DNA from: Felis catus
Lineage: Eukaryota
Length of the DNA stretch: 64,000 nucleotides
NCBI RefSeq assembly: GCF_018350175.1
Contig: NC_058368.1
Span: forward strand, 45,510,001-45,574,000
Reading direction: 5' to 3'
The notes under the pieces were generated by a model, which saw only the letters and a program-made list of their open reading frames with translations, made no database searches and was not told the origin of the DNA. The position numbers and the translations under genes are program-made. This document shows, one piece after another, positions 2,731 through 40,091 of this stretch (positions are counted from its first letter, which is position 1; every line of letters begins with the position of its first letter).

Positions 2731-4114
2731 AAGTTCCTACCAATTTTTACAGGTATTACAGTGAACATGTACAATGGTACCAAAGTAAGCTATTCACAAG
2801 GATTAGGTAACATAGTTCTACAGATGAATTTGTAGCTTTGATTTTATTCTTATATTATAGATAAATAGGGGCACCAGCAATTAATTAAGTTTACAAGGTC
2901 TCAGTGGTAACAAATGGCATTAGTCAAATCCAAGTCTAGACATTTTGACTTTTCAGCATATCATTATAAATGTATATTTTGTGGCTTTTTTTTATTTTTA
3001 AATATAATAATTGATTCAATATTCAAATATTACAGAAAGGCTAACAGGATTATGTTGTTCTTAACTCTTAAAAGATGGAATTTGAAAAGCAATCAAATTA
3101 TTAGCAGCCAGCGCACATAATTTTATTGGCTTATGCTGGTGTAAAGGACTTATATACAATTTCTACATTTCTTTTGTGTACTTTTCTCACTAAAAACTTT
3201 TTCGACAAAAATTGCACTGCTAAATCTAAAGTAACTCAAGAAACATGTTTATGGCTATTGAACCTGTGAAATACGAAAATAACGTTGAAAAGAGCTAAAT
3301 AACTCAATAACCACCTTGAAGTATTGTACTCACAGTAATCCAAAGTTCCCTTGGGTGGACGTAGCCTTAAGATATTAAAGATATAATATGTTCACATTAT
3401 TCTATGTCCTTGAGCTTTTCAAAAACTAAAGCGACTTAATCACTTTATTACTCAAAAGATATTTAAGTCCAGAGAAAGCTAGAGTTATCTGAATAAATCA
3501 GAGATATATCAAGATAATTTAAGAAAGGTGTGTTTGTCTAAAGCAACTACTATTGTTGCTTCATCTACCTCAGCAAAGGATAATTTCCAGTTATCCCTTT
3601 ATGTTGGTGTTATGTAAACCTGGCATAAACAAGCTCTGGTTTCTCCAAAACACGGATCGTTTTGAATAATTGAAGAGTTGGAATTGTGGCCAAGAAGTGA
3701 CAATGAAATCCGTCTGATTAGGATTCTAAAGACACATGTACTATTGCTTGAGCTTAGTAAACATAACTCATAAATCTAAACACCTAATCATATGGTCTTT
3801 TAGCAGTTTGGCATTTTTTCCCCTCATTTCCAAAATCTCTCTGAACATGAAAACTTCACCAAATAGCTAGGCTTCAGGGGAAAAAAGTCTGACCCAGAGA
3901 GATAATACCATCTTATATTTTAAAAATCATGTTGGACCTTTGGACATTTGCTAAATTAAATGTTTTATTGTTTGCAAGATCATTTCATTTAGCTATTGAA
4001 AACTGGGGTGACTAAGTCTTTGGATATTTAGAAAATACTCTTAAATATGCAACAGTATAATAACGATAACAGTTTATTGCAACCATTTAATTAAGAGTAA
4101 CAGCTTTTCAAACT

Positions 4115-4390
4115 CTAGAATCCAATCCAAACATAAATGCATGGGATTTGATAACTAGAGAATTGTCTTTGAAAGGAAGGATGACATGATAGCTAATGCA
4201 TGCACATGGAAACTAATTAGATTTTTTAGCTAATGAATCCCCATTTAAATAAATGTGATTCGATAAATAATGGATCCCCATGGAAATGAATAGAATTGGA
4301 TGACTAACGCACCCCACTGAAATGAATGTGATTCGATAGTTATCGCATCCTCATAAATGTGTTAGATTGAATCCCATTCATTTTAATTGC
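4115..4390. repeat. Degenerate ~37-bp tandem array with quasi-palindromic units
   Basis: Units start at 4150, 4188, 4225, 4262, 4299 and 4335 (spacings 38, 37, 37, 37, 36). Approximate consensus GATAGCTAATGCATCCCCATGGAAATGAATGTGATTC. Confidence 0.8.
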
Positions 4391-4410
4391 AATAAATTAA
4401 AATAGCTTTT

Positions 4411-4452
4411 GTTCATGGCCTTTTGGCTAAGATCAAATGTTCTGTCCTCTAT
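4411..4452 (+). pseudogene. U2 snRNA 5' fragment (3'-truncated pseudogene)
   Basis: GGCCTTTTGGCTAAGATCAAATGT (4417-4440) matches U2 GGCCUUUUGGCUAAGAUCAAGUGU at 23/24. The following TCTGTCCTCTAT weakly resembles U2 UCUGUUCUUAU. Confidence 0.8.
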
Positions 4453-6644
4453 TTGGGGACTATATCCTAACCAAGCAGACAACCCAGACTTACTAATCTA
4501 ATAGGTCCCTTCTTTCTCTAACTATGTGATCTATATGCTACCAATGCCATTCGTTCCAGTAAGGATGACTCAGTAATAAAACCTATTCATTTCAGCAGAG
4601 CGTTTGTTGTCAATTAGACTTCATTAATTTCAATGGGGAGTTTTTAGCTATTACAAATAGAGCCATCCAAATGTATTTAAATGCTACTTTTCAAAAAGAA
4701 GTCAAAAACATGTTTGCATAGACAAACCCAAATTTCTAATGTATGCTTTTGCTAGGTCACTTAAAATTAAAATATTTAAGTTATATTTAGGAATACACTT
4801 TATTAATAAATGTGTAACTTACATATAGACTTCTGAAAAGAAAATGTGAGTAGACTCTTGAAAATGAAGCACATGATTATCAAAAATAATAAAAACCCAC
4901 TCTTTGAATGAATCTATTTTAGTGCATTTATCACATCTATCAATTTATTTATCTTCAATTTCTTTCCATTTGTGTGTTTTGTGGGGCCAGACTATCTTAT
5001 TTATGTGTGCATTACAAAATTATACAGGAAGAGGATATAGTGAAGTCCTGATAAGCTGAACAGGTAAATGCATATAGATAAGTAAATTAATAAATGAATG
5101 ATTATAAGATTTCAGGGAAATAAAAATTTATTGAACATTAACAGTAGTTTACCTACTGGGATAAATGCCATTTATGCATATATCCATGTGTGTATATCAT
5201 CTTTATTTAAATGTAAATGTCATAACTATTCCATGAAATAAATGTTGAGACTTTCTTAAAATGAGGAAATGGATTCCAAAAAGGAATGAATAAAAAATCC
5301 CACGGCTAACAAAGTATGGTCAAAGCCCAGGTCTGCTAGATAAGAAAGACACTCATTGTTTTCCTTACACTATGCCTTCATTACCTTAACATGCAAAGAA
5401 AGTTCTCTTGCACAAATGCCTTAAATACATGTGAATCTAGAAAAGGTTACAGCTTGGGGAAAAATATACACTATTAAAAATAAATGTCCAAATTAAAATA
5501 AGGGGAAAAGCCAAAATAATAGAACCTATCATAAGCCACTGCTTTGAAGTATTTCAATTTTACTAGAAGATAAAAAGGAAAACAGTATGGCAAACTTAAA
5601 AGAGTAAAATCTATTATTTAAATGATAGGATTAAAAATACAATAGTGATACTCAGCTAAAGACTTATTCATCCCCTACACTTGTCCACACACACATAGAA
5701 ACATATACGTAGAATTTATGAAAAGCATCAACATAATTATTTTGTCAGAATCTTGAAGAGGTAGAGTTTGAACAAGTGATTCTTTAGATAAAATGCTTTC
5801 TTATACCCCAAGAAATCCAATCTCTCTTTACCCCAATTTCTCCCTCTTTCTCAATGATTTCCTGATAGAGTTTCAAATTATTTTAAATAAATGTGACTTC
5901 AGTAGCACATCTGGTGTTATTAACACACACAGAAACATTGGCCAATAAAAAAAGACATCATGTGTAGGACATATTTCATACAGTGTATATTTTATTATTT
6001 TTATATGCACATCTTACTGAACCTTAATCAGGAAATCAAATAGGAAAATACTTCTCATCAGAACAGAAATTTCAAGTATATTAAAAACAGATTATAGATA
6101 TTTTACCATATGTGCTACTCATAGATTTTCAATGATTTTAAAACAAATTCCCCCAAAATAGTTTTCATTTTCCTTTAGAGTATTTCATTTTCCACTGAAT
6201 ACCCTCAGCACTCTCAAACATGACACTGGAGGACTTTCAATTCTTCATTAGCTGCAGAAAAAATACACTGCATATTTAGAGCCAGAGGAAAGAGAAGTGT
6301 GATGGAAATTCTTTTATAGGTGTGGTAACGAACTGTATTGGACAATGTCCTGAAATGACACAGCTTTCTCCCTACAGGGGCAAAGGAAATAATCAGCCAA
6401 AATAACAAAATCTTTCAAACATAATATAATTAGGATCGTTATAACAACACATATTAAATTTAGTTAATCCATGGCCACACTTACCTGGAAACTTGTAAAA
6501 GGAAGACAAAGGGACTAATTTTGTACAGAACAGATTGTACAGCAGCATCCAGTACTTTAATGTATTGATGGTAACGATAATGAAACATGTCATTAAAAAA
6601 GAAATCAGATGAAAAGCTTTAGAGATTTTTTCCCCCAAAACAGG

Positions 6645-14862: not shown

Positions 14863-15253
14863 TGAAAATAAACATTTTTCAGAAAATGTAAGAAAACTTT
14901 GAATTCATGCTCTTTTTTTTTTTTAAATAATGTGGGAAGCCCTCCCAGATCTCTAGCCTGTAACTTCCACTTTGTCTTCAGGAACTAAGTAAAGCACTAC
15001 TACTGCCATTTACTCGTGTCTGACATCGGTCCAATTATCTCCTTCTCTTCTTAGTTCCTATGGAAACTATTAGGCCATAAAACAAGGCAATAAGTGATAT
15101 ATTGCTTTATATTATTTTCTATTGATTTATGTTTGTTGACTTTTTCCCCACTGAGACTATATCCTTGTGGCCAGGAAATATGTCTTTATGTATTTTGTTT
15201 TCTTTGTGTGATTAACAAAGTTTAAATGCTCACTTAAAAATATTTGTGGTTTC

Positions 15254-16261
15254 AGTACTCCTGTATCCCTTGGATAAATTCCTAGCAGTGCTATTGCTGG
15301 GTCATAGGGTAGGTCTATTTTTAATTTTTTGAGGAACCTCCACACTGCTTTCCAGAGCGGCTGCACCAATTTGCATTCCCACCAACAGTGCAAGAGGGTT
15401 CCCGTTTCTCCACATCCTCTCCAGCATCTAGAGTCTCCTGATTTGTTCATTTTGGCCACTCTGACTGGCGTGAGGTGATACCTGAGTGTGGTTTTGATTT
15501 GTATTTCCCTGATAAGGAGCGACGCTGAACATCTTTTCATGTGCCTGTTGGCCATCCGGATGTCTTCTTTAGAGAAGTGTCTATTCATGTTTTCTGCCCA
15601 TTTCTTCACTGGGTTATTTGTTTTTCGGGTGTGGAGTTTGGTGAGCTCTTTATAGATTTTGGATACTAGCCCTTTGTCCGATATGTCATTTGCGAATATC
15701 TTTTCCCATTCCGTTGGTTGCCTTTTAGTTTTGTTGGTTGTTTCCTTTGCTGTGCAGAAGCTTTTTATAGGGCCACTTGTACCCCAATGTTCATAGCAGC
15801 ACTCTCAACAATAGCCAAATTATGGAAAGAGCCTAAATGTCCATCAACTGATGAATGGATAAAGAAATTGTGGTTTATATACACAATGGAATATTACGTG
15901 GCAATGAGAAAAAATGAAATATGGCCTTTTGTAGCAACGTGGATGGAACTGGAGAGTGTGATGCTAAGTGAAATAAGCCATACAGAGAAAGACAGATACC
16001 ATATGGTTTCACTCTTAGGTGGATCCTGAGAAATTAACAGGAACCCATGGGGGAGGGGAAGGAAAAAAAAAAAAAACAGGTTAAAGTGGGAGAGAGCCAA
16101 AGCATAAGAGACTCTTAAAAACTGAGAACAAACTGAGGGTTGATGGGGGGGTGGGAGGGAGGAGAGGGTGGGTGATGGGTATTGAGGAGGGCACCTTTTG
16201 GGATGAGCACTGGGTGTTGTATGGAAACTAATTTGTCAATAAATTTCATATAAAAAAAAAT
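15254..16261 (+). mobile_element. Young felid L1, 5'-truncated with a 5' inversion (15254-15768 antisense; 15767-16261 sense with poly(A))
   Basis: Minus-strand ORF2 peptide 15157..15609 and plus-strand ORF2 C-terminus 15718..16029 are adjacent parts of ORF2. 14-bp TSD ATATTTGTGGTTTC at 15240-15253 and 16262-16275. Confidence 0.97.
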
Positions 16262-17379
16262 ATATTTGTGGTTTCCAAGAGTTACATACATACACACCCA
16301 CACCCTCCATGAAGGGAGCAGAGAACTAGGCTAGTATCTTGGTAAAAGAACTATAAAAATCACCAACCCAGGATGTGTCAATTTACTTATCTCTAGCTAC
16401 TGTCAATATCTATGATCATATGGTTCTGAACGTAGTAGGAAACAAATTCATATTTAGTGAATGGCACATAACAAGCAAAGTCCTACCAATTTAAGTCAGC
16501 TTTAAAATGTTCCCATCTCCTGGTAATACATTTTTCATTTACTCTAAGTATGCAAGCTCCTAACAAGTTCACTCCTGCTCTCAGCATTTATAAACATAAT
16601 AGGCTTTTTGACTTATAATAGCAGAAATAATGGAGATGTGGAGAGGGTCATACAAGGAAGTGTATTCAGTGAAATTAAGGGGAATCTAGGTCCATTCGTG
16701 CATATTCCACTACTTGAAAGGAAGTTAGTAATTCTGAGATTATAGCATTCATTGGGCTTTCTAAGGTTATGAAACATTTCAAAGGTTAAACAAGGTTATT
16801 AAATGATTCTAGGAGTTCATAAATTAGTCACTATAGATTTTTTAAACAAAGGCACTTTAAAATAAAGCAGAATGATTTGGAATTGTATTGATTTATCCAG
16901 TTAAATGTGCCAATATATATCCTCTTTCACTTTTCATTTAGAAATATAACCAAGAAAATGTTAGTCCTACTGATTGTAATTTTTGATGCTAAATTAGAGT
17001 ATTTAAGTATATCCTAATTGATTTTTCTCTAAGAAGCAGAAGAGTCAGTAAAAATAGATTTGAAAGGAAATGTGTCTGCCCTTATGTATCTAAGATGGTA
17101 GAATAATTTGGAGAAAATAGCACTTGATGAAATATGTTAAAACATAGGTGGGTATTGAAAGGAAAAATGTTTCATGAATGATTCTTAAGTTGTCAAGTAT
17201 TAAAATGCATCTTCTAATCTGATCTATGATTTTAAAAATTAAAGTTCTGGTTAATCAATTGTATCAAATAATTGAAAGTGTTCTTTAAAATAACATATGT
17301 AATGATGGAGAAAACCTCTGGGTTTCTAATTTTCTGAGCCAACTGCAAGGTGGGGAAAATATAAGAGGGGTGGAGCATA

Positions 17380-18547
17380 AAGGACCTGAATGTGAGACAG
17401 GAAACCATCAAAACCCTAGAGGAGAAAGCAGGAAAAGACCTCCCTAACCTCAGCTGTAGCAATTTCTTACTTGACACATCCCCAAAGGCAAGGGAATTAA
17501 AAGCAAAAATGAACTACTGGGATCTTATGAAGATAAAAAGCTTCTGCACAGCAAAGGAAACAACCAACAAAACTAAAAGGCAACCAACGGAATGGGAAAA
17601 GATATTTGCAAATGACATATCGGACAAAGGGCTAGTATCCAAAATCTATAAAGAGCTCACCAAACTCCACACCCGAAAAACAAATAACCCAGTGAAGAAA
17701 TGGGCAGAAAACATGAATAGACACTTCTCTAAAGAAGACATCTGGATGGCCAACAGGCACATGAAAAGATGCTCAGCGTCGCTCCTTATCAGGGAAATAC
17801 AAATCAAAACCACACTCAGGTATCACCTCACGCCAGTCAGAGTGGCCAAAATGAACAAATCACGAGACTATAGATGCTGGAGAGCATGTGGAGAAACGGG
17901 AACCCTCTTGCACTGTTGGTGGGAATGCAAATTGGTGCAGCCACTCTGGAAAACGGTGTGAAGGTTCCTCAAAAAATTAAAAATAGACCTACCCTATGAC
18001 CCAGCAATAGCACTGCTAGGAATTTACCCAAGGGATACAGGAGTACTGATGCATAGGGGCACTTGTACCCCAAGGTTTATAGCAGCACTCTCAACAATAA
18101 CCAAATTATGGAAAGAGCCTAAATGTCCATCAACTGATGAATGGATAAAGAAATTGTGGTTTATATACACAATGGAGTACTACGTGGCAATGAGAAAGAA
18201 TGAAATATGGCCCTTTGTAGCAACGTGGATGGAACTGGAGAGTGTTATGCTAAGTGAAATAAGCCATACTGAGAAAGACAGATACCATATGGTTTCACTC
18301 TTAAGTGGATCCTGAGAAACTTAACAGAAATCCATGGGGGAGGGGAAGGAGAAAAAAAAAAAGAGGTTAGAATGGAAGAAAGCCAAAGCATAAGAGACTC
18401 TTAAACTGAGAACAAACTGAGGGTTGATGGGGGGTGGGAGGGAGGGGAGGGTGGGTGATGGGTACTGAGGAGGGCCACCTTTTGGGATGAGCATTGGGTG
18501 TTGTATGGAAACCAATTTGACAATAAACTTCATATATTGAAAAAAAA
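17380..18547 (+). mobile_element. Young felid L1, 5'-truncated (ORF2 C-terminal region, 3' UTR, short A tail)
   Basis: ORF2 peptides 17392..17961 and 18049..18315, with a premature TGA ending at 17961. G-rich 3' UTR. Perfect 19-bp TSD ATAAGAGGGGTGGAGCATA at 17361-17379 and 18548-18566. Confidence 0.98.
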
Positions 18548-22784: not shown

Positions 22785-23007
22785 TTTTTTAATTTTAATG
22801 TTTATTCATTTTTGAGAGACAGAGAGACAGAGAGACAGACAGTGAGCAGGAGAGGGGCAGAGGGAGAGGGAGACACAGATTTTGAAGCAGGCTCCAGGTT
22901 CTGAGCTGTCAGCACAGAGCCTGATACGGGGCTCAAACCCACGAACCGCGAGTTCATGACCTGAGCTGAAGTTGGACGCTTAACTGACTGAGCCCCCCAG
23001 GAGCCCC
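22785..23007 (-). mobile_element. Felid SINE
   Basis: Full SINE body on the minus strand ending CAGGAGCCCC. Confidence 0.95.
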
Positions 23008-23246
23008 TCTCCCTCTACTTTTAGATTCTTTTGATTCTTCTCTACTATCCTACTGAAAAAATTCAGACTGTAATTTTATCTTTAATTTGTCCTCCAACTT
23101 TAGCGTAATTTTGACCAAGTTACTAAATTATCTTTGATTCCAGTTTATTAATTTACATTATTAGTAGACTAGACTAGATTATTTACCCATAGAATTCATG
23201 TCACCTTCAGAATCCTAAGATTTATAAGAGTCTGTTAGTCAATGGA

Positions 23247-23423
23247 GGGGCCTCTGGGTGGCTCAGTTGGTTGAGCGTCGAACTTCAGTTCAGGTCTTGA
23301 TCTCGCAGCTCATGAGAAGTGGGCTTGCTCCTGTCAGCACAGAGCCTGCTTCAGATCCTCTGTCCCCACCCCCGCCACTCCCTTGTTTATGCTCTCTCAA
23401 AAAATAAATAAAATATTAAAAAC
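23247..23423 (+). mobile_element. CanSINE, short or internally deleted
   Basis: Perfect 21-bp TSD AAGAGTCTGTTAGTCAATGGA at 23226-23246 and 23424-23444. Confidence 0.95.
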
Positions 23424-34776: not shown

Positions 34777-34829
34777 GTCATGGTAAACTGTAAGAAGTAT
34801 TTGTCATGGTAAACTGTAAGAAGTATTTG
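34777..34829. repeat. Perfect 26-bp tandem duplication
   Basis: GTCATGGTAAACTGTAAGAAGTATTT at 34777-34802 and 34803-34828. Confidence 0.97.
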
Positions 34830-39314: not shown

Positions 39315-39457
39315 GGATGTGAGTGCAACTGGCTTTGCCATCTGTCCCCCCATTGATCTCCAGGGATGATTCAGGTGATCTGGCTGGCTAGGTGAGCGTC
39401 CCCTTCCTCCCTCAGCGTTCCATGCGCGTCCCTCCCAAAGTCATGCTCTCGGTGGAA
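39315..39457 (+). pseudogene. RN7SK: 7SK snRNA retropseudogene, 3'-truncated (about the first 140 nt), no poly(A) tail
   Basis: GGATGTGAG...CATCTGTCCCCCCATTGATCTCCAGGG...TGATCTGGCTGGCTAGG...CCCCTTCCTCCCTCA...CATGCGCGTCCCTCCC matches the 7SK 5' half from nucleotide 1. TSD GAAATAGCAACACTG (39300-39314) / GAAATGGCTACACTG (39455-39469). Confidence 0.95.
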
Positions 39458-40091
39458 ATGGCTACACTGAAGACAACTAGCAGTACATATGCCACATAGA
39501 GACTGTACCTTATTTTCATTTCATAGACTGAAATATGAACTCCATTCCACAACAGCCACCTCTCTATCTGGGGTCTGAGAGCAATTCATCTGATTAGCCT
39601 CTCCTAAGATCACATGGTGAGAAGCATGAAAAGATGTTGTCATGTGATGTGAGAGCCCACAATATACTCCTGATAAAATAAAATTTGAATAAGTGTACAC
39701 ATACACCCCTCCAATGATATTTGACCAAAAATAATAAACTATGTTTTTTTTAACTTCTCAGTTTTTGTTTTAATATTTTAAGATCAATGGGACAATTTCA
39801 CTGAACTGCCTGTTAGTTTTTCTTTCTTTAAAGTAGAAGAATTAAAGACCCATTCTTAATTTGTTAGTAATGTACAGAAATTGCTGTGCTTTTGGGGAAA
39901 CAAAGACATGCCTTTCTTAACAACTATGCTGAAACAAAACACAGGCTCTTTCTTCCCCTCCAGAATCTAGACGGCACTCTCGCTACTCCTGTCCCTATCC
40001 CTTCCACACACACGCTGAGCAATTTATGTTTCCATAAGCCAGAATTTTTTCCTCTATTTATTTGTTCCTTTTGCCTATAATTCCTATAACC

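Follow-up and report, generated by a model that had tools for sequence, protein, structure and literature searches.

We analysed a 64,000-nt stretch of the cat genome (hereafter, the window) that carries an array of diverged 37-bp units, a second array of such units in reverse orientation and, between them, a relic of the U2 snRNA. The whole supported element spans 4113-4651 and comprises, on the segmentation of an HMM, the forward array, the apex, a central interruption and the reverse array; its length is put at 540-650 bp. The window is gene-poor, AT-rich mammalian DNA (GC 0.30-0.41) containing pieces that we take, from their reading frames, to be LINE-1, together with SINE-like copies and a 7SK fragment. 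Frames presumably belonging to the C-terminal part of LINE-1 ORF2 lie at 15157-15804 on the minus strand and at 15670-16029 and 17365-18315 on the plus strand, and the LINE-1 3′ ends are inverted or rearranged across 15157-18315. The 7SK match (39315-39523, plus strand; 101.7 bits) exceeds the Rfam gathering score; its similarity apparently covers the 5′ part only, and it is probably a 3′-truncated retrocopy. Elsewhere, a perfect 26-bp tandem duplication (34777-34829; two copies, 100%) is probably recent and possibly polymorphic, while an inverted pair at 22940-23009 and 23245-23314 (70 nt, 81%, separated by 235 nt) probably represents two oppositely oriented SINE copies.

The context of the array is non-coding. 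A Pfam scan of 150 of the 252 stop-free frames of at least 55 residues in the window (the other 102, mostly those taken as LINE, SINE or microsatellite sequence, were left out) gave no match above cut-off and four weak, sub-threshold ones, and coding exons were accordingly rejected; over the whole element there is no frame of at least 90 residues. All 103 words sampled from 3900-4900 were present in 14 of the 24 sequencing runs among those listed, 13 of them, from four studies, once a possible source run is set aside, and an assembly artefact is excluded for this stretch. Six of the 24 listed runs were RNA runs; they carried 0.14-0.57 of the words and are no evidence of expression.

The forward array

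The initial annotation described a cryptic 37-bp array at 4115-4390, and all of the strings and coordinates that it quoted were located in the window. Within this interval the best lag was 37 (identity 0.444), which none of 2000 dinucleotide shuffles equalled (mean 0.335), and Tandem Repeats Finder returned a period of 37 with 2.9 copies and a score of 118 at 4231-4338. Five of the six phased units listed were recovered by free search, those at 4188, 4225, 4262, 4299 and 4335 being matched by 0, 0, 4, 0 and 3 of 1000 shuffles, respectively. The sixth, at 4150, misses on its own (75/1000) yet passes in phase (58 of 17,983 background blocks). An additional seventh unit at 4113 was matched by 113 of 1000 shuffles in free search and by none of the 17,983 background blocks in phase. 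The earlier description was thus incomplete: it lacked this unit, the reverse units of 4541-4651 and the U2 remnant of 4412-4470.

Numbered from the left, the plus-strand units differ in preservation. Unit 0 (4113-4149) fits the unit with its 3′ two-thirds alone, and unit 1 (4150-4187) is heavily decayed. Units 2-5, which start at 4188, 4225, 4262 and 4299, form the best-preserved core (4188-4334), with leave-one-out identities to the majority of 73-83%. Unit 6 (4335-4368) is forward in its first half, and its second half fits the start of the reverse arm equally well. The period is constant to within 1 nt across the seven units, with few indels, and a further unit upstream of 4113 was rejected (p 0.08 and 0.59). 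We trained a cyclic HMM covering both strands on four of the forward units; run on the window at two entry settings, it returned a forward segment at 4125-4368 (about seven units), a reverse half-unit at 4369-4387 and a reverse block at 4541-4651, and no further segment anywhere in the 64 kb. The left edge of the element at 4113 was set by unit phase and by a hairpin described below, the HMM starting at 4125.

Two exclusions made initially also hold. The array is not CRISPR-like, as the full 37-nt unit repeats without spacers, and it is not a recent minisatellite: the ten units of both arrays are 35-75% identical pairwise (mean 54%) and occur in two orientations.

The reverse arm, fold-backs and dyads

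A strand flip had been noted at the 3′ end of the forward array, and the HMM placed its reverse-strand state there, at 4369-4387, next to a fold-back apex at about 4349-4356. This minus-strand half-unit nearly duplicates (12/16) positions 4543-4558 at the beginning of the reverse array, and the resemblance between 4357-4387 and 4529-4559 was reached by 21 of 1500 window pieces. The reverse array proper (4541-4651, minus strand) consists of three whole units with 3′ ends near 4541, 4578 and 4616, none of which was equalled by any of the 17,983 background blocks under a profile built from forward units only. As a mirror, 4227-4339 aligns with the reverse complement of 4538-4650 over 74 of 115 columns with a score of 315. 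No shuffle of 300 reached this score, and two of 201 control windows exceeded it, both because they cover the inverted pair at 22940-23314. The arms are unequal, with about 6.5 units forward against 0.5 + 3 reverse.

At 4652-4757 (minus strand), decayed mirror images of units 2, 1 and 0 are weak candidates: the whole arm was equalled by 96 of 1500 controls, and pieces picked after inspection by 19 and 28 of 1500, and the HMM makes no call there. Hidden units at 4406, 4443, 4466, 4480, 4653, 4664 and 4690 were rejected (p 0.25-0.97). A 24-nt direct repeat (4477-4500 and 4720-4743; 75%, 243 nt apart) lies on either side of the reverse array and, roughly estimated, does not exceed what chance would give in a 1.5-kb self-comparison.

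Two fold-back hairpins were found. The central one (4318-4385) turns at the apex of about 4349-4356, the symmetry centre within unit 6, and contains an inverted repeat of 89% identity (4320-4337 and 4366-4383); the stretch 4299-4400, picked after inspection, folds with a z of -4.1 (0/200 shuffles). The left hairpin (4100-4178) has its apex at about 4135-4140, the centre of the inner dyad of the unit. Its arms (4100-4134 and 4141-4178) were matched by 2 of 1500 window pieces and 7 of 1500 shuffles, and 4113-4163, likewise picked after inspection, gave a z of -4.4 (0/200). Both apices (about 4138 and 4352) coincide with the centre of that dyad. The reverse array and the two-unit core showed no advantage in folding over shuffles (157 and 106 of 200, respectively), and a single long stable fold-back over 4110-4700 was rejected (z -1.9; 4/100 shuffles).

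The claim that each unit holds two near-dyads is borne out in the pooled data, although the dyads are broken in most individual units. The junction dyad retained 33 of 54 pairs against a null mean of 3.5 per 9 (resampling p 3e-4) and the inner dyad 32 of 63 against 2.4 per 9 (p 8e-5), p values that are optimistic because the registers were picked on these same units. In single units 2 to 8 of the 9 pairs remain, about half being kept in most. The survival of CpGs, to which attention had also been drawn, proved ordinary for the window: four CpGs in 276 nt were equalled by 24 of 231 non-overlapping windows, and enrichment was rejected. Of 20 consensus CpG positions, five are intact, seven are TG or CA, two are TA and six are otherwise changed. 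Five intact sites are slightly above what a fully methylated relic of such age might keep, and the pattern is that of ordinary decay, perhaps with slightly high survival.

A U2 relic in the central interruption

The gap between the two reverse segments holds a plus-strand relic of U2 snRNA at 4412-4470, composed of U2 nt 6-34 (4412-4440) and nt 68-94 (4444-4470). About 33 nt are gone between the blocks, and the copy is 3′-truncated, with neither a poly(A) tail nor any A-run after it. The Rfam model RF00004 matched 4407-4488 at 24.1 bits, under its gathering score of 46, with an E of 0.053 searched over 3.5 kb and 0.0026 over 176 nt. Against the full U2 gene in locus L040, the first block is identical at 26 of 29 positions and the second at 21 of 27; for the second block alone, none of 2182 control pieces scored as well with two U2 genes, and two did with a third. 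The relic starts at nt 6 against all three genes, a nearly complete 5′ end, and ends against two of the three at nt 93-94, positions unpaired in the Rfam structure line. A functional U2 gene was rejected on the sub-threshold score and the lack of an Sm site and of the 3′ half.

The genes for comparison were among 50 loci, full U2 genes in many cases, that matched a 20-nt stretch of the window; 20 were scanned in one pass and two in another. The 20-mer occurred in 48 stretches of bacterial genome assemblies (L003-L050), and many of the 20 scanned hold full eukaryotic U2 genes, some adjoining U1, U3, U5, U6, 5S or tRNA genes; these loci are eukaryotic contamination. In a contig of the viral collection, about 42 nt from the 5′ end of U2 run into unrelated sequence (L002:525-630, minus strand; 49.7 bits); this is a 3′-truncated U2 copy in apparent host DNA. 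In L006, L007, L012, L019, L027, L028 and L031, U2 5′ heads of about 31-48 nt are fused to unrelated sequence, with tandem repetition in L028 and L031; they possibly mark the junctions of retrotransposons that target U2 in the eukaryotes behind the contamination.

The relic is flanked by an AT-rich spacer of 24 nt (4388-4411), in which the HMM found no unit, and by a middle segment of 70 nt (4471-4540), where a decayed unit at 4504 is marginal at best (p 0.20 and 0.04 under two models). Neither side yielded more U2: 4386-4411 was matched by 1148, 182 and 46 of 2266 control pieces for the three U2 genes, and 4466-4542 by 434-670 of 765. No target-site duplication lies directly beside the U2 piece, so that the route of arrival assigned to it is a putative one. 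The best direct repeat around it, and the sole candidate past the filter, is the pair of unit ends at 4370-4385 and 4543-4558 (12/16), which lie 26 nt to the left and 72 nt to the right of it. Being better preserved than the arrays, at least in comparison with non-cat U2 genes, the U2 piece would be a later arrival.

Age, origin and related elements

A left-by-right search for a terminal inverted repeat found no pair above a score of 8, and the outer arms, taken as terminal repeats, were equalled by 96 of 1500 controls; decay could have removed such ends. A 9-nt direct repeat at 4104-4112 and 4687-4695 was rejected as a target-site duplication, an exact 9-mer in equal geometry being present at 77 of 1160 places elsewhere, and both copies are also legible as reversed unit pieces. 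Kolobok termini were rejected as well: there is one TTAA-RR at 4091 and no YY-TTAA in 4651-4950, the chance rate being about 3.5 per kb per strand, and TTAA/AGGRR ends are absent on the right side. With no accepted termini, the ends do not allow a family to be assigned. Neither a PWM nor nhmmer nor the two-strand HMM found a second copy in the 64-kb window. The unit motifs had no matches in viral contigs, metagenome contigs or phage records, and the motif of the U2 deletion junction had none in metagenome contigs, a scan uninformative for mammals; these blanks weigh little, because the collections hold little vertebrate DNA and the scans included no vertebrate-repeat positive control. A literature search found no description of the element, repeat consensus sequences being held in Dfam and Repbase, outside that search.

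The ten units are 54-83% identical to their leave-one-out majority. The two arms match at 74 of 111 ungapped columns, equivalent, if they were identical at insertion, to about 0.22 substitutions per site per arm. The mammalian substitution rate is near 2e-9 per site per year, at which this divergence corresponds to roughly 100 million years, and we infer an age of about 100 million years or older. Local alignment flatters identity, the units of the master element may already have differed, and constraint would make the element older. The arm divergence calls for no age greater than that of early placental mammals.

We consider a fossil of a non-autonomous cut-and-paste DNA transposon, of MITE or fold-back build, split by U2 and probably inert (inertness being assumed), to be the best explanation, with about an even chance of being right; the array probably belongs, as a single copy, to a kind of ancient mammalian repeat already known. 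An ancient DNA transposon had been proposed initially, and the mirrored second array speaks for it, but the searches for terminal inverted repeats and a target-site duplication yielded none. The central feature of the element is a 37-bp two-dyad unit that is tandemly arrayed and mirrored about an apex at about 4352. The mirrored arms, the clean HMM segmentation without false segments, the length of 540-650 bp and the lack of Pfam matches all favour a transposon, as do the layout shared with Xenopus MITEs and the decay signature of the CpGs and broken dyads. Against it stand the lack of a terminal inverted repeat, an accepted target-site duplication and a second copy, and the unequal arms. On this transposon model, the array would have grown in a master element by slippage, and the strand change would have arisen through template switching at the inner dyad, as suggested by the position of both apices at the centre of that dyad. 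A transposase acting in trans may have used the units as its phased subterminal binding sites. The U2 piece would be a later, LINE-mediated tailless retrocopy, and neutral decay over some 100 million years or more would have erased recognisable termini and left no present function.

Co-option of such a transposon copy, with the phased dyads forming a homotypic array of transcription factor-binding sites (an enhancer or silencer) whose period is under selection, is unlikely, though it deserves the most serious hearing of the alternatives. It would account for the near-constancy of the 37-bp period, which varies by no more than 1 nt across the seven units, with few indels, and for the five intact CpG positions of 20; the window is gene-poor, ancient repeats are reported to be concentrated in conserved regions (PMC5753468, PMC3500645), and MITE-derived enhancers have been proposed in Xenopus (PMC12676858). 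Yet most units have broken dyads, the reverse array and two-unit core fold like shuffles, and the CpG count is usual for the window. The initial suggestion that the array was kept for protein binding or structure accordingly drew no support from anything tested. A purely local origin, in which a hairpin-prone 37-bp sequence unique to this locus expanded by slippage and replication template switching, is improbable. Such an origin would explain why termini, a target-site duplication and a paralogue were all not found, and why the strand switches at the unit's own dyad, but mirrored arrays of a two-dyad 37-bp unit are the build described for vertebrate MITEs, and the paralogue search spanned 64 kb of cat DNA and collections poor in vertebrate DNA.

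The interruption invites another reading, namely that 4388-4540 is one retroposon, derived from U2 with an internal deletion, whose target was the first reverse unit and whose insertion duplicated 16-19 nt of that unit (4369-4387 and 4541-4559), in the manner of SINEU-3. The best direct repeat around the block is placed accordingly, and in the best mirror register both copies of the duplicate pair with forward unit 5. In addition, the first U2 block ends at nt 32-34, and SINEU-3 combines a 32-nt 5′ block with an internal deletion and a duplication of 16 nt (PMC4494074). We nevertheless hold this reading to be improbable as well: any two unit ends resemble a duplication, the second block is 27 nt long (U2 68-94) against an 83-nt middle block in SINEU-3, there is no poly(A), the 24 nt before and 70 nt after U2 go unexplained, the deletion-junction motif had no matches in metagenome contigs, and SINEU elements are reported in that study from crocodilians only. 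Slightly less credit still goes to two or more short palindromic elements inserted in or beside each other in opposite orientation. Nesting would fit the unequal arms, the two fold-back apices and the unassigned middle segment, but each array keeps one continuous phase (244 nt forward, 111 nt reverse) with no internal termini, and, with none elsewhere in the 64 kb, separate insertions side by side would have required targeting. Combining several of these elements, one could conceive of an uncatalogued ancient mammalian family of fold-back transposons together with a U2-derived deleted retroposon that targets its 37-bp unit and duplicates 16-19 nt, with paralogous composites elsewhere and some copies possibly serving as phased regulatory arrays; this is a long shot.

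If the fossil-transposon reading is right, the locus is one more worn copy of an ancient DNA transposon holding a small-RNA retrocopy, and matters little. Should it belong to no Dfam or Repbase family, the 37-bp profile would be a handle with which to recover and date an unannotated ancient family. Were it constrained across mammals, the locus would offer a testable example of a transposase-binding array that became a regulatory one. Recurrence of the deleted U2 form in paralogous arrays would place target-specific retroposons derived from snRNA in the mammalian lineage also; the study that describes them reports them only from crocodilians (PMC4494074).

Several known systems resemble parts of the locus. 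Tailless U2 retropseudogenes truncated in single-stranded regions are reported to be common in Boreotheria (PMC5322556). The cat relic shares with those of therians a near-complete 5′ end, a single-stranded 3′ end after the second small stem and the lack of oligo(A), and differs in its internal gap of about 33 nt and in that no flanking target-site duplication was found. SINEU-3, which resides in the crocodilian Mariner-N4_AMi, has a 5′ 32-nt U2 block and, after about 50 deleted nt, a middle block of 83 nt, with a 16-nt duplication (PMC4494074). The cat locus likewise appears to hold an internally deleted U2 derivative within a putative non-autonomous DNA transposon, and its first block of about 32 nt fits that layout. 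Its second block, 27 nt from U2 68, does not, and it has no 3′ poly(A), was seen in one copy and has a mammalian host. The U2-targeting LINEs Keno and Utopia leave split U2 fragments (PMC4640811). Their LINE body lies at a U2 split near nt 37-39, whereas in the cat 3 nt, and no element, separate the two U2 blocks, no frame for a reverse transcriptase is close by, and the neighbouring frames have no Pfam match.

Several of the ancient mammalian and amniote repeat families (MER, X_DNA, Eulor, UCON) are palindromic, and the cat element fits this group, compared by name only, in age class, size and host. MER125, MER126, MER136 and X_DNA are listed as unclassified DNA transposons, Eulor and UCON as unclassified and UCON29 as Kolobok (PMC5753468), and ancient families are enriched in conserved regions (PMC3500645).

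A likeness to elements of non-mammalian vertebrates had initially been suggested, and two 16-nt motif strings had no matches in literature text. Subterminal repeats are known from Tol2 (PMC8151067). In Xenopus, the MITEs Harbinger-N12A_XT and Kolobok-N2_XT have terminal repeats and palindromic internal repeats and are proposed liver enhancers (PMC12676858), and Xmix is a T2-MITE with an amplified internal repeat, Xstir, T2-MITEs ending in TTAA/AGGRR (PMC6004289). Four short motifs had no matches in 12 of the 13 supplementary files of PMC12676858, and the likeness is one of description rather than of aligned consensus sequences. The Xenopus MITEs have intact termini and thousands of copies, whereas no termini were found for the cat element, which lacks the TTAA with AGGRR/RR on both sides of a Kolobok T2-MITE. 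MITEs of the PIF/Harbinger type have a 3-nt TWA duplication and family-specific termini. The cat element is, like the Xenopus MITEs, short and non-coding, with palindromic internal repeats, a tandemly amplified internal segment of the kind seen in Xmix/Xstir and an inverted-repeat architecture in the form of its mirrored internal arrays. We claim membership in no named family; by analogy, the element would work like the palindromic MITEs of Xenopus.
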